Positions 3,360 through 54,336 of a stretch of DNA of 64,000 bases are shown piece after piece. Made by a program: the position numbers and the translations under genes. The stretch spans positions 96,001 through 160,000 of the forward strand of contig CBDANC010000012.1 of assembly GCA_965197425.1 (NCBI GenBank), read 5' to 3'. How positions within the stretch are numbered: the first letter of the stretch is position 1; each line of letters starts with the position of its first letter. A model generated the notes under the pieces. The model saw nothing but the letters and a program-made list of their open reading frames with translations. It was not told the DNA's origin and did not search any database. This stretch comes from Bdellovibrionales bacterium (GTDB lineage: Bacteria > Bdellovibrionota > Bdellovibrionia > Bdellovibrionales > JAUICD01).

Positions 3360-3548
3360 TACGGAATTATACTCGTGTCCAAAGCTGGGCAACCACTCAG
3401 TCAAAATAAGTGAACAAGTCCACTTATTTTGACTTCGTTAGGAAGACCTTATGAAACTGGATCAGCATCGTGTTACAGTGCTGGGCAACCATTCGGATAA
3501 AAAAGTAGGCGAAGCCTCCTTATTTTTATCCGAATTCAGAAGACCTTT
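3360..3548 (+). repeat. Family A cluster, two tandem units lacking the 64-bp module
   Basis: GCTGGGCAACCA(C/T)TC, variable hairpin, then GAAGACCTT, twice. Confidence 0.9.
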
Positions 3549-5520: not shown

Positions 5521-6348
5521 ATGATGGATGACAACAAGAAACCAGAAGATGTGAAAGAACAAGAGATAAAGGACAAGAAGTTAAAGGGCATAAGCACAAA
5601 AGGCAAATTTGCCAGTGCTTTTTTTATCCTATGCCTTACCACCGTTATGGTTTCCTATCAAAACTGCGGAATGGTGGCCACATCTTCCATGTCTAAAATA
5701 GACTTTACAGATGTTAATAACTGTGGTGTTGCTCAGTTTGACATGCAATCTCTTGGATTACCAGGGACTGTTCAAATTGGAGTGCAGTATGTTGCTTCAA
5801 GCCCAGTAGCTTTTATAAGCTTTCCACTTCCAGGTGCTGGAGGAATTATGAGCGCAAACGGAAGTATTGACGACATACCAGGAGCTACTTGGTATACTAT
5901 GCCTGATCCTCCAACATACCAAATAGAAATCCCTGTTGACTCTGTGGCTACCCTGACATACGAGGAAAGACAAAACAAACTTCCTAGTAAAATAAAATCA
6001 GATGGTACCCATGAAAACAAAGGCCCATATTTGTTTGGCTTTGACAGACAAGTTGCGGATGTTAAGAATCTAACTCTTGATCAATACAATAACCTTGATG
6101 GGAGATTGTATTATAGAAATAGCAGACCACAAACTCTGGGCTTACTGGTAATGTCAGAGGATTTACCTAAGTTGCCATTAATCCAAGGTTTTTTACAAAA
6201 CATAACCCCCAGTAAAACACTTGAAAAGTGCGACCAAACTATAGGTCATGTCGCCTATATTATGGTAGAAGATGAAGATGAAGATGATCAATACCAAGCT
6301 AACAACGGTATTTACCTTTCTATAAAACTTGACAACTTAGTTCAATAA
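5521..6348 (+). CDS. Hypothetical lipoprotein
   Basis: Hydrophobic stretch ending VSYQNC, resembling the F/YQNC lipobox seen in Bdellovibrio proteins. Confidence 0.6.
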   Translation: MMDDNKKPEDVKEQEIKDKKLKGISTKGKFASAFFILCLTTVMVSYQNCGMVATSSMSKIDFTDVNNCGVAQFDMQSLGLPGTVQIGVQYVASSPVAFISFPLPGAGGIMSANGSIDDIPGATWYTMPDPPTYQIEIPVDSVATLTYEERQNKLPSKIKSDGTHENKGPYLFGFDRQVADVKNLTLDQYNNLDGRLYYRNSRPQTLGLLVMSEDLPKLPLIQGFLQNITPSKTLEKCDQTIGHVAYIMVEDEDEDDQYQANNGIYLSIKLDNLVQ

Positions 6349-6363
6349 AAAAGGAATGTCAAA

Positions 6364-7110
6364 ATGCCAAGGAAAAGAAAAAAGAAAGTTAAAAAGAAAT
6401 CACTAAAACGAAAAACTACAACCAAAAAAAAGACTATAAAAAAAGTCAAAGGAAAACCTACAAAAAAGGTTAAGAAAAAGTCCACTAAAAAGAAAACTAA
6501 GAAAGTAATCAAAAAGAAAATCAAAAAAAAGTCAAAAGTAACTAAAAAGAAAGCTAAAAAAAAACTTAAAAAAAAAGCTAAGAAAGTAACTAAAAAGAAA
6601 ATTAAAAGAAAACCTACAAAAAAGGTTAAGAAAAAGTCCACTAAGAAGAAAATTAAGAAAGTAATCAAAAAGAAAATCAAAAAAAAGTCAAAAGTAACTA
6701 AAAAGAAACCAAAAAAAACAACCACTAAAGCTAAAAGTAGCAAAAAATCTTCAGCAAAGAAGAGGGCAGAAAAAAAAGACACAGCCTCAAAAAAGACTAT
6801 AAAAAAAAATGTAGGGAAAAAGCCTGCTGTAAGATCACTAGAAGAGATCAAAGCAGATGAATCTACCACTATATTTTCCAAAGATATTTTACATGCTGAT
6901 GACCCTAGAGTTAAGGCGCAATATGACCCATACGATGAAGCAGACGACTTTGGTGACAACGAAGATTTTAAAGCTCAAAGCTTTCGCAATGATGATCTTT
7001 TTGATGATGAGGAATATGCACAAGATTTTGAACCTGAATATGAACAACTTGATGAAGAAAAAGATATAATATCAGATTCAGATAATGAAGAAGACGAAGA
7101 TTTTATATAA
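6364..7110 (+). CDS. Lysine-rich histone H1-like protein with acidic C-terminal tail
   Basis: ~150 aa K-rich region with an internal duplication (period 156 bp), then a D/E-rich tail. Confidence 0.7.
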   Translation: MPRKRKKKVKKKSLKRKTTTKKKTIKKVKGKPTKKVKKKSTKKKTKKVIKKKIKKKSKVTKKKAKKKLKKKAKKVTKKKIKRKPTKKVKKKSTKKKIKKVIKKKIKKKSKVTKKKPKKTTTKAKSSKKSSAKKRAEKKDTASKKTIKKNVGKKPAVRSLEEIKADESTTIFSKDILHADDPRVKAQYDPYDEADDFGDNEDFKAQSFRNDDLFDDEEYAQDFEPEYEQLDEEKDIISDSDNEEDEDFI

Positions 7111-7350
7111 CAAGGTCCATTAACGAACAGCAAATAATTCTGGCTCCGCCAGATTTTTGCTGTGAGTGACTGTTCCCTGGTGGACCTCACAGCCGATCCA
7201 GTTCCACAAGGTCTTCCGAACGAGGCAAAAACAAGGAGGCTTCGCCTACCTTTTTTGCCAAGTGGTTGCCCAGCTCTGGAACAAGATGCTGATCCCATTA
7301 CTAAAGGTGAGCTTAATGAGGCTATGCCTGTTTTGATCCGGCATTCCGGG
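7111..7350 (-). repeat. Family A cluster, reverse orientation
   Basis: CAAGGTCTTCCGAACGAGGC...GTGGTTGCCCAGC...GATGCTGATCC; hairpin shared with 25596-25644. Confidence 0.88.
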
Positions 7351-7351
7351 A

Positions 7352-7843
7352 TCATGTATTTTTCCATAATTGGTATAGAAAGCCTCCTAGCACATCTGCC
7401 TCTTCTATTAGTTCTTTGTGGTCTATGAGATCTAGTATAGCTTGCGTTTCTCTGAGCGAGTCTAAGCTTATTGCATAGAATCTTTTTCTATCTTTTGCTG
7501 TAGGTTGGTTCAATTGGCTCACGGGATAAACCTTTATATTTTCCAATTGAAATAAACTCCCTGCGGTCGTTTTTGCACTTCCCTCCGCAAGGTTAAGTAG
7601 AACACTCAAAGTAGCTCTTTGGAATTGGTTTTTGAGGGGTTCTTTTAGCCAAAGTTTTTTTGATTCTCGATAAAACTCTTTAGCTATTTGGTATGTTTTT
7701 AATTTTTTTGGAAAAATTAAAGATACTACCGGTTCCTGGTGGCGGATGCCAGATGCAGATAACGGATCCCTGACTGCCGGGTTGCCTGAATACCTATTAT
7801 AATCTGTTAAGTAATTTTTGGTATATATTTCCAAATCCACCAT
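7352..7843 (-). CDS. Four-helix-bundle protein (23S-IVP/Avd-like), copy 1, with a 22-aa in-frame insertion; true start uncertain (core begins ~7715)
   Basis: YQIAKEFY...LKNQFQRATLSVLLNLAEGSAK...RKRFYAISLDSLRETQAILD; paralog at 22489. Confidence 0.82.
   Translation of the reverse strand: MVDLEIYTKNYLTDYNRYSGNPAVRDPLSASGIRHQEPVVSLIFPKKLKTYQIAKEFYRESKKLWLKEPLKNQFQRATLSVLLNLAEGSAKTTAGSLFQLENIKVYPVSQLNQPTAKDRKRFYAISLDSLRETQAILDLIDHKELIEEADVLGGFLYQLWKNT
7505..7570 (-). mobile_element. 66-bp MITE-like module inserted in-frame in the four-helix-bundle gene
   Basis: Absent at the homologous site of the paralog (22621-22631); related copies at 2480, 19808, 25513 (degenerate), 25777, 54135. Confidence 0.9.
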
Positions 7844-19672: not shown

Positions 19673-19917
19673 AGCAACTTTTATCGTATTATACCTACAA
19701 AGCTGGGCAACTCTGATTTCGCCTAGGCAACTTTCAGTTCTTGCTGAGACCTTGTGTGGAAGGATCAGCATCTTGTTCTAGTGTTGGGCAACCACTCAGT
19801 CAAAAAACCGACCGCAGGGAGGTTATTTCAATTGGATAATATAAAGATTTATCCCATGAGCCAATTGAACCAAAGTGAACAAGTCCACTTGTTTTTGACT
19901 TCGTTCGGAAGACCTTG
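19660..19917 (+). repeat. Family A cluster with 64-bp module (19808-19871)
   Basis: Near-identical to 2458-2588. Confidence 0.92.
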
Positions 19918-21950: not shown

Positions 21951-22500
21951 AACAAATAAGGGCCTTGGGGTTAATAAGGAGATAACCTCTGAAGTTTTAA
22001 GGGTTATTGGTCCAGATGGAACGATGTTTGGAGTAATGAAAAAGCAAGATGCAATTAATCGTGCAGAAGATTTAGGTCTTGATTTGATAGAGGTTGCACC
22101 CAACAGTGATCCTCCCACTTGCAAGATAATGAATTATGGCAAGTATAAATATGAGCAAAAAAAGAAAAATCAGGAGGCAAAAAAAAGACAAACTATAATT
22201 ACTGTAAAGGAGATAAAGTTAAGGCCTAGAACAGATACTGGCGATTTGCAAACAAAGTTAAAACATACAAGAAAATTTTTAGAGCAAGGGAACAAAGCAA
22301 AAATTACTATTAGGTTTAGAGGCCGTGAGATGGCACATCAGGAAATTGGAAAAGACCAATTAGATAAAGTGATGAAAGCTTTAGAGGATATATCTGTTGT
22401 AGAGGTTGAGCCAAAAATGGAAGGAAGACAAATGTTTGCTATGCTTGCACCTAATCCTACTGTTTTAAAAGAGTTAGCCAAAAAGAAATCAAAAGCATAA
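21931..22500 (+). CDS. infC: Translation initiation factor IF-3, probable ATC start
   Basis: IF3 similarity (VNKEITSEVLRVIGPDG) extends upstream of ATG 22024; AGGAGG at 21921 precedes in-frame ATC at 21931. Confidence 0.93.
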   Translation: MRLRRNRTNKGLGVNKEITSEVLRVIGPDGTMFGVMKKQDAINRAEDLGLDLIEVAPNSDPPTCKIMNYGKYKYEQKKKNQEAKKRQTIITVKEIKLRPRTDTGDLQTKLKHTRKFLEQGNKAKITIRFRGREMAHQEIGKDQLDKVMKALEDISVVEVEPKMEGRQMFAMLAPNPTVLKELAKKKSKA

Positions 22501-22806
22501 AGGTCTTCCGAGTACATCTGCTTCTTCTATAGGGTTTTTGTGGTCTATGAGATCTAATATAGCTTGTGTTTCTCTTAGTGAACCTAAGCTTATTGCATAG
22601 AATCTTTTTCTATCTTTTGCTGTTGGCTTTGCACTTCCTTCTGCAATATTTAGTAGAATGCTCAAAGTAGCTCTTTGAAATTGATTTTTGAGCGGTTCTC
22701 TCAGATAAAGGTTTTTTGAGTTTTTATAAAACTCTTTAGCCAGTTGGTATGTTTTTAATTTTTTTGGAAAAATTAGGGATATGACAGATTTCTGTTGCCG
22801 GATCAC
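22489..22806 (-). CDS. Four-helix-bundle protein, copy 2, C-terminus replaced at a repeat end (possible pseudogene)
   Basis: LKNQFQRATLSILLNIAEGSAKPTAKDRKRFYAISLGSLRE; diverges from copy 1 after EEADVLG at GGAAGACCTT. Confidence 0.8.
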   Translation of the reverse strand: MIRQQKSVISLIFPKKLKTYQLAKEFYKNSKNLYLREPLKNQFQRATLSILLNIAEGSAKPTAKDRKRFYAISLGSLRETQAILDLIDHKNPIEEADVLGRPLCF

Positions 22807-22811
22807 AGATA

Positions 22812-22867
22812 CAGATCCCAGATCCCAGATCCCAGATCCCAGATCCCAGATCCCAGATCCCAGATCT
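22812..22867. repeat. Heptamer tandem repeat (CAGATCC)7 + CAGATCT
   Basis: Read directly from the sequence. Confidence 0.97.
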
Positions 22868-25465: not shown

Positions 25466-25933
25466 CAAGGTTTTCCTAACGAGACCAATAAGGCGAACTT
25501 CGTTTGCCTTTTTTCAATTGGTTCACGGGATAAATCTTTATATTATCCAATTGGATGAACCTCCTTTGCAGTCGGTTTTTTCAATAAAGGTGAGGTTAGC
25601 GAACAGCAAATAAATCTGGCTTTGCCAGTTTTTTGCTGTGAGTGCCTGTTTCACCGAGTGGTTGCCCAGCTCTACACATGTCATCAAACTCATCTCCACT
25701 GAGGGTATCGTAATATGATTTGCTTTAAAACTCAAGCACTGACCCCCACTTGCCAACAAAGTGAACTTGTTTGCTTGGTTCAATTGGCTCACGGGATAAA
25801 TCTTTATATTATCCAATTGAAATAACCTCCCTGCGGTCGGTTTTTGGCCGAGTGACTGTTTCCAGGTCTAACTAAGGCTAGGGAACTTTCATATTTCACC
25901 AATTCATCTTTTAGCTTGATTAGGAAGACCTTG
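25466..25933. mobile_element. Composite family A element bounded by 14-bp inverted ends, carrying two 64-bp modules
   Basis: CAAGGTTTTCCTAA...TTAGGAAGACCTTG (1 mismatch); modules at 25513-25575 and 25777-25840. Confidence 0.72.
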
Positions 25934-53867: not shown

Positions 53868-54336
53868 AAAGGCCAATGAAAAAACTGGCAAACCAACCAT
53901 CAGGGAGGTTCTTTCCGCTGAAGGTGAGCCTAATGAGGCTAATAAGATGGACTGGTGTAATGCAGGACGAAGTCCAAATGAAACCAAAACATCTTTTAGC
54001 CGAGTGGTTGCTTCTTGGTCTGACTAAGGCTAACACCAACATTACCCTCGCCACCACCAAAAATTGGCTGAGCCTTTGAGATTGGGATTCTAAGTGACCG
54101 TGTCAAAACGCTGAGCAACCACTCGGCTAAAAAACCGACCGCAGGGAGGTTATTTCAATTGGAAAGTATAAAGATTTATCCCGTGAGCCAATTGAACCAA
54201 AGTGAACAAGTCCACTTGTTTTTAACCTCATTGGAAGACCTTTGTAACGGGATCAGCATCGTGTCCAGTGCTGGGCAACCACTCGGCAAAATAAGTAGGC
54301 ATAGCCTCCTTATTTTTGCCTCGTTCGGAAGACCTT
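53868..54336 (+). repeat. Family A cluster with 64-bp module (54135-54198), a variant module (53893-53985) and a 19-bp inverted repeat
   Basis: TTTTAGCCGAGTGGTTGCT/AGCAACCACTCGGCTAAAA; ends GGAAGACC at the ssb stop. Confidence 0.92.

Follow-up and report, generated by a model that had tools for sequence, protein, structure and literature searches.

Features of the locus

The window analyzed here is a 64,000-nucleotide stretch from a Bdellovibrionales bacterium (C12:96001-160000), part of a 1.6-Mb genome (G000) that is 99% complete. Two genes on its minus strand, at 7352-7708 and 22489-22764, belong to the PF05635/TIGR02436 four-helix-bundle (FHB) family; the two profile scores of the host gene are 41.4 bits against a cut-off of 33.8 bits and 42.4 bits against a cut-off of 24 bits. 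The first gene is filled: a 66-bp element splits the Lys codon of a GSAK motif behind its first base and adds 22 codons. Its product reads GSAK-TTAGSLFQLENIKVYPVSQLNQ-PTAK, and that of the second, empty gene (copy 2) reads GSAK-PTAK. Translation and alignment therefore bear out the in-frame module that an earlier, sequence-only reading of the window had described. That reading placed the module at 7505-7570. The net insertion is the same, but it is best placed at 7507-7572 (minus strand), which amounts to a slide of 2 nt within the flanking As. The element sequence quoted at the time differs from the copy at 7505 at four positions; the copy itself is a variant with a C-G to A-T change in the left hairpin. 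Copy 2 had been taken for an empty allele of the same gene, and this was wrong, because it is a paralogue that differs by 14.5% (36/249 nt).

The frame of the filled gene stays open to the normal C-terminus. Its native ribosome binding site (RBS) and ATG have been lost by a deletion that is common to copy 2 and to a paralogue on another contig (C13:84591), and both window genes lack these signals. Copy 2 also lacks its C-terminus, the codons of which are replaced by the tail of a hairpin repeat, family A. This tail (22489-22520) abuts the stop codon of a gene on the opposite strand. Beside the filled gene, an upstream arm of short degenerate repeats (7731-7800, minus strand) is predicted to pair with a downstream short-repeat arm (7311-7360, minus strand) at -18 kcal/mol, a value computed with no shuffle control. 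The downstream arm is followed by family A hairpin repeats. A near-perfect 7-base tandem run lies directly upstream of the empty paralogue (22806-22866), and other paralogues have degenerate arms of 7-8 bases. An open reading frame (ORF) for a 248-aa, lysine-rich, histone-like protein with an acidic tail (6364-7110) adjoins the repeat cluster.

Further copies had been noticed near 2480, 19808, 25513, 25777 and 54135, and all are present as full copies. Those at 2478-2543 and 19806-19871 (both plus strand) occupy the same type of host hairpin, in the former case the 5' arm of a family A hairpin. The copy at 25511-25577 (minus strand) is a 67-bp variant. The copy at 25777-25842 (minus strand) is identical to that at 2478-2543 and sits in a different host hairpin, and the copy at 54133-54198 (plus strand) again lies in a family A hairpin. 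A 32-nt core of the element has six matches in the window and none in 100 shuffles. The empty family A site reported at about 3399-3420 is indeed present, within a unit of head, hairpin and tail (3384-3451, plus strand) of the host type that is filled at 2478 and 19806; it is a single base away from the exact rebuilt site. Within a repeat cluster at 53890-53916 there is also a solitary, diverged left half of the element.

Copies, ends and structure of the element

The genome-wide search suggested for the module yields 51 full copies in G000, six of them in the window. They were parsed from 58 loci at which a fuzzy scan detects one or both halves of the element. Thirty-six copies are 66 bp long, 14 are 67 bp and one is 65 bp.

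The ends of the element are precise, of the form AACC...AACC, and they lie between two As (an A^A site). The first four bases are AACC in 47/51 copies and the last four in 36/51. The flanking base is A at position -1 in 50/51 copies and at position +1 in 51/51. The second base to the right is A in 46 copies, T in three and G in two, giving a right flank of AA in 46/51 and of AT or AG in 5/51. A 2-bp AA duplication, which had been considered possible, is therefore not obligatory, and a copy nested inside another copy rebuilds its target without duplication. The flanks are equally compatible with a target duplication of 0 or 1 bp. For 15/51 copies, excision of exactly 66 nt recreates a site that the genome also contains in another place, compared with 8, 1, 1 and 0 for other offsets. 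The flanks of the nested copy recreate the element's own middle (five matches), and four further loci appear to resemble self-nesting in which one right half was later lost.

The element was said to have internal but no terminal inverted repeats, and this holds: both ends are AACC in direct orientation, and the hairpins are internal. Thus, two features of classical miniature inverted-repeat elements (MITEs) are absent, namely terminal inverted repeats and a constant target-site duplication (AA right flank in 46/51, none in the nested copy). In the consensus fold, the left hairpin begins at base 1 and the right hairpin is closed by CAATTG palindromes. Folding z-scores of single sequences are modest (-2.5, -1.7 and -0.9). 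Only one base pair shows a double change, the compensatory C-G to A-T in the left hairpin, which belongs to the variant of three FHB genes and counts as one event. Element variants are mosaic across copies. No longer version with the same ends and an enzyme gene was found among the BLAST and fuzzy genome matches.

The element has no match in Rfam, and the sole match in the window at gathering score is one tRNA. It was not found in 60 relatives, and exact element patterns gave 0 matches in metagenome, genome and viral collections. A looser junction pattern gave 86 matches, none with more than 21/55 identity upstream and none in a four-helix-bundle gene. No description of this arrangement was found in the literature covered, outside which most subscription papers lie. 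The element is a lineage-specific mini-element with an unusually sharp choice of site.

Insertion into hairpin repeats and at hemB

Forty-six of the 51 copies lie outside FHB genes, nearly all of them in the 5' arm of modular repeat-family hairpins or nested in the element itself. Five types of host hairpin occur both filled and empty (9/35, 13/29, 2/10, 4/10 and 4/15), and each host type has one orientation of the element. The first loop motif lies 8 nt after the site in 32/51 copies, a count taken over hosts that are not independent. The intergenic copies are concentrated in few host types (14 + 8 + 5 of 51), so they are not independent of each other and may have spread with their hosts.

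Direct coding insertions are found only in FHB genes. The hemB gene, the only housekeeping gene affected, is reached only inside a larger family A unit, and other ORFs that overlap the element look like repeat-derived shadow ORFs. At the hemB start (G000:C13:253091-253260), a family A unit carrying the 66-bp module lies in the first codons and is flanked by a short duplicated target. The insertion supplies a new RBS and ATG, and the frame of the module is the one that it has in the FHB genes. From comparison with the genome G001, HemB is predicted to have a longer N-terminus in the same frame. G001 itself contains a 36-unit array with a 66-bp period that is CRISPR-like in appearance (G001:C1:469209-471550) and a separate dispersed family of hairpin repeats with about 40 copies.

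Insertions in four-helix-bundle genes

G000 has 19 FHB loci. Five are filled, in each case between the first and second bases of one and the same Lys codon: the window gene on C12, one on C6, C13:84591, C13:208930 and C15:353033. Among 75 database homologues of the FHB gene, about 50 of them from other genomes, 71 are empty, and the four filled ones are on contigs that match G000's own in length. The 22-residue segment is also absent from the FHB homologues printed from relatives' loci. Because 71/75 homologues are empty, the filled state is derived; had homologues generally carried the segment, copy 2 would instead be a deletion.

On a tree of FHB genes with the inserts removed, the filled state requires a minimum of three changes along well-supported branches, and a single clade of filled genes is rejected (p-AU 0.0004). 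The five filled loci carry three distinct element variants. The genes on C12, C6 and C13:84591 share an identical 66-mer, though the hosts differ by 17-21% over 249 nt, and identity around the 66-mers ends after 4-7 nt on the right and 10-13 nt on the left. C15:353033 and C13:208930 carry other variants that are nearest to intergenic copies, and they keep the flanks of their own subfamilies. A state that is derived and was gained more than once supports the earlier proposal of independent mobility, and we consider it quite probable that the element inserted independently. Arrival at the FHB site in at least three separate events is likely. Since about 61 A^A sites are available in an FHB core, three or more insertions at one of them are not chance.

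In the five filled genes, 9, 9, 8, 8 and 5 of the 11 nt that follow the FHB site agree with the element's left end. Among 323,963 non-repeat A^A sites, 0.12% reach eight matches and 0.01% reach nine, although this test was devised after the sequence had been seen. The left half of the 67-bp variant can be aligned with the 37 nt after the site, a likeness equalled in 3/3000 shuffles and at 3/15000 background sites. The commoner left half and the right half have no significant gapped likeness to FHB genes (equalled in 916 and 239 of 3000 shuffles). G001 has no FHB gene, yet its own repeats contain the CCGACCGCAGG loop motif, so the left end can derive from the repeat family. Judged from these likenesses, the 11-nt match is probably a cause of targeting rather than proof of an FHB origin.

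FHB genes are also interrupted by other repeats. A different hairpin module of 65 bp (G000:C13:84826-84890), which belongs to the repeat family and has >20 look-alike matches in the genome, interrupts C13:84591 and disrupts its frame; it lies 12 nt upstream of the site of the 66-bp element. In the genomes G002 (L047-L051) and G004 (L033-L037), FHB genes are broken near LGSL-REVQ by genome-specific hairpin repeats of ~160-210 bp. These interruptions by each genome's own repeats, near another fixed position, affect 5/14 FHB loci in G002 and 5/19 in G004, and they may descend from one old event.

Preservation of the reading frame

The length of the module had been thought to serve preservation of the frame. 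This is unsupported: 15/51 copies are 65 or 67 bp, 46/51 are outside FHB genes, and three of the five filled genes lack a start or a full frame. The frame used is open in 35/36 of the 66-bp copies, and 5/5 FHB insertions are in frame. An ATG, a Shine-Dalgarno sequence and the full frame are kept in 2/5 filled and 13/14 empty genes (Fisher p 0.037, for paralogues that are not independent). Tests for relaxed selection on the filled proteins are mixed, with p values of 0.003 for columns conserved at 80%, 0.34 for columns conserved at 90% and 0.12 for private residues.

An AlphaFold model of the filled protein has four helices, and its top Foldseek rows are 2gsc and 2rld (E 0.015-0.12). The four helices are intact in this model (mean pLDDT 83.5, from an alignment of 5), and the insert is a low-confidence loop. 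The 22 extra residues are thus predicted to lie in the loop between helices 2 and 3. The host FHB gene is probably dispensable, and frame preservation is probably incidental, a result of the element's length and of insertion into a multi-copy gene that is itself dispensable.

Candidate mechanism and enzymes

Perhaps the 66-bp element is a non-coding DNA that is moved as a folded single strand by a trans-acting enzyme, probably of the HUH type, that is missing from the assembly; we give this reading about an even chance. The element would be excised and pasted as a folded single strand, with no target duplication, by an enzyme acting in trans that is probably of the Y1/RAYT type of HUH protein. 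In the repeats, the target might be chosen by a nearby hairpin loop, and in the FHB gene it might be chosen because the element's left end resembles the 11 nt that follow the site. For the chemistry alone, a single-strand HUH reaction is a plausible choice that falls slightly short of an even chance. It fits best because of the precise ends, the fixed orientation, the lack of duplication, the dinucleotide site near hairpins and the small size of the element. HUH enzymes associated with repetitive extragenic palindromic (REP) sequences act on single-stranded DNA, which they cleave at a dinucleotide next to a hairpin (PMC8266576). Against HUH chemistry, no gene for such an enzyme was found, there is no strand bias relative to GC skew (26 versus 25 copies) and no leading or lagging bias, and the cut site has no fixed tetranucleotide of the kind seen in IS200/IS605. 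The modest folding signal and the shared host types of most intergenic copies also count against this reading. Against targeting by the 11-nt likeness, one filled gene has only 5/11 positions in common with the left end.

Profile searches of G000 detected no PF01797 (Y1/RAYT), PF00078 (reverse transcriptase), PF00589 (tyrosine recombinase), PF02371 (IS110), PF04480 (DUF559) or PF07282 (TnpB). No PF01797 gene was found in G000 (99% complete), G001 or G002, and no cognate Y1 HUH gene flanked by the repeat, as in REP/REPIN systems, was found in G000, an assembly of a kind from which repeats can drop out. The one GIY-YIG domain in G000 is within a 612-aa frame of UvrC size. The only recombinase found is a single small serine resolvase (PF00239, C12:4669-5388), the catalytic domain of which is N-terminal. 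The 157 larger ORFs without a homologue in G001 were judged by eye from their first 45 residues rather than by profile, so an unusual enzyme could be missed among them. Because searches of this 1.6-Mb genome found none of the customary enzymes (Y1, IS110, reverse transcriptase, tyrosine recombinase and TnpB), the list of candidates is short and the mechanism is testable.

PF00589, and so XerC/D, was found in neither genome of the genus (G000 and G001) and is present in all of the 11 other relatives searched. A palindrome upstream of the resolvase is partly kept in G001, and the resolvase and palindrome are possibly a substitute resolution system. C11 has a transposase-like ORF (5853-7499), which by its motifs is presumably IS1634-like, and C13 presumably has an IS1595-like fragment on the same basis. 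Ribosomal protein genes present on C14 are duplicated on C11, which may come from another organism. An integron attC site was rejected, since there is no tyrosine recombinase and no canonical core was seen. An intein was likewise rejected, since there are only 22 residues and no splice-junction residues.

Alternative explanations

It is possible, if on balance unlikely, that no dedicated enzyme is active at present and that the copies stem from one or two old insertions, multiplied through gene conversion and the recombinational shuffling of repeats and paralogues. No candidate transposase was found in G000, the element variants are mosaic, the hosts are themselves repeats, and the GSAK-PTAK region is conserved among the paralogues, all of which favor this reading. 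However, the flanks shared by identical copies (4-13 nt) do not exceed those shared by a filled and an empty gene (14 nt). Moreover, C13:208930 and C15:353033 combine their own subfamily flanks with different variants nearest to intergenic copies, and non-homologous hosts, as well as the self-nested copy, show identical ends. A broader reading is doubtful: the hairpin repeats and the multi-copy FHB cassettes of this bacterial family would form one undescribed mobile system with a novel catalyst, in which a 66-nt element that has no gene for an enzyme of the known mobile classes homes to a single phosphodiester bond of FHB genes through a sequence there that resembles its left end.

Exchange by a serine recombinase over a 2-bp AA core, comparable to IS607 exchange over GG and catalyzed by the resolvase at C12:4669-5388, is rather improbable. 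AA is found on both sides in most copies, and the lack of a terminal inverted repeat or a longer duplication is the same outward signature as that of IS607 (PMC6188088). The resolvase is the only recombinase found, and its close homologues occur in 4/31 genomes (G000, G001, G002 and G004), all of which have hairpin repeat families. However, these four genomes are kin, and no hairpin repeats were seen in the printed flanks of the resolvase genes. A 66-bp loop of double-stranded DNA is also very stiff, which counts against this exchange. In addition, AA is lacking from 5/51 right flanks, while the GG core of IS607 is said to be invariant, and the catalytic domain of the resolvase is N-terminal, in contrast to that of IS607 TnpA (PMC6188088).

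Another alternative, which we regard as very improbable, is that the left half was copied from an FHB gene, so that element and cassette form one selfish system with the gene as its home site. The alignment of the 67-bp variant (3/3000 shuffles, 3/15000 sites), the interruption of the same gene family by hairpin repeats in G002 (5/14) and G004 (5/19), and the second module in C13:84591 would all suit such an origin. However, neither the commoner left half nor the right half shares the likeness (916 and 239 of 3000 shuffles), the CCGACCGCAGG loop motif occurs in repeats of the FHB-less G001, and the interruptions in G002 and G004 may stem from one old event.

Finally, the idea that copy 2 is a deletion or that the filled copies are assembly artefacts is already largely refuted and can practically be set aside, because 71/75 homologues are empty, the relatives' printed homologues lack the 22-residue segment, and five loci carry three element variants, with a 0-difference contig from a second sample over the 7506/7507 junction, even if the junction contigs fall below the bridging threshold of 31 nt inside the element. 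Read support for the junctions is partial: in two samples, contigs run across each junction without a single difference, yet they extend only 28 and 17 nt into the element. In run X1, one contig skips exactly 66 nt, with ends AA..CC, and runs X4 and X5, from related strains, contain module-like contigs.

Relation to known elements

The sequence-only reading had compared the module to Rickettsia palindromic elements (RPEs), and the analogy holds in part. As in RPEs, a palindromic repeat with an open frame is inserted in-frame in coding sequence, and the protein fold is predicted to remain intact. However, direct coding insertions of the element are at one base of one probably dispensable paralogue family, hemB is reached only within a larger repeat, and the element is 66 bp and mostly intergenic. 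RPEs are about 150 bp, and nearly half are in many unrelated genes (PMC10969869). The spread over many unrelated protein genes that defines RPEs is not seen here.

By the features tested, the element works most like REPINs and the small dispersed repeats (SDRs) of Nostoc, and it is a member of neither. Like REPs and REPINs, it is a small, non-autonomous hairpin DNA that is mostly extragenic and clustered and has no terminal inverted repeat. Its clusters arise, as those of REPINs do (PMC3116915), by insertion into or next to repeats that are already present. The A^A dinucleotide near a hairpin would also be consistent with single-strand cleavage, as at REP-associated (RAYT) sites. Unlike REP/REPIN systems, the genome has no RAYT gene that could be found, and the element has no inverted REP doublet and no GTAG foot and repeatedly enters a coding site. 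The Nostoc SDRs, work on which is credited to Elhai et al. in 2008, are reportedly tiny, structured, mobile repeats of 21-27 nt in cyanobacteria that insert into one another and into other repeats and are not known to have an enzyme. Like SDRs so described, the element is small and self-nesting and no enzyme was found for it, but it is 66-67 nt long.

The ends also recall those of IS607, which lack terminal inverted repeats, have no target duplication and share a junction dinucleotide (PMC6188088). However, the AA core appears not to be invariant (46/51; first A 51/51), no IS607-type transposase was found, and the element is far smaller. The transposase of IS607 has an N-terminal DNA-binding domain; the product of the only PF00239 gene is catalytic at that end.

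The spread of very small bacterial repeats is largely unsolved, and this case offers ends defined to the base, targets in both the filled and the empty state, a nested intermediate and several insertions at one base. It also advises caution in reading in-frame repeats as protein innovation, since the host genes here look dispensable and are often broken. The same host family includes the S23p genes of 23S rRNA intervening sequences. The family is described as having no known function and the Coxiella ORF, which is preceded by heptamers, as expendable (PMC4990558). The host genes in G000 resemble S23p genes in being PF05635/TIGR02436 members with flanking short repeats. In contrast to S23p genes, they occur as 19 free-standing copies outside rRNA, five of which have the 66-bp insert.
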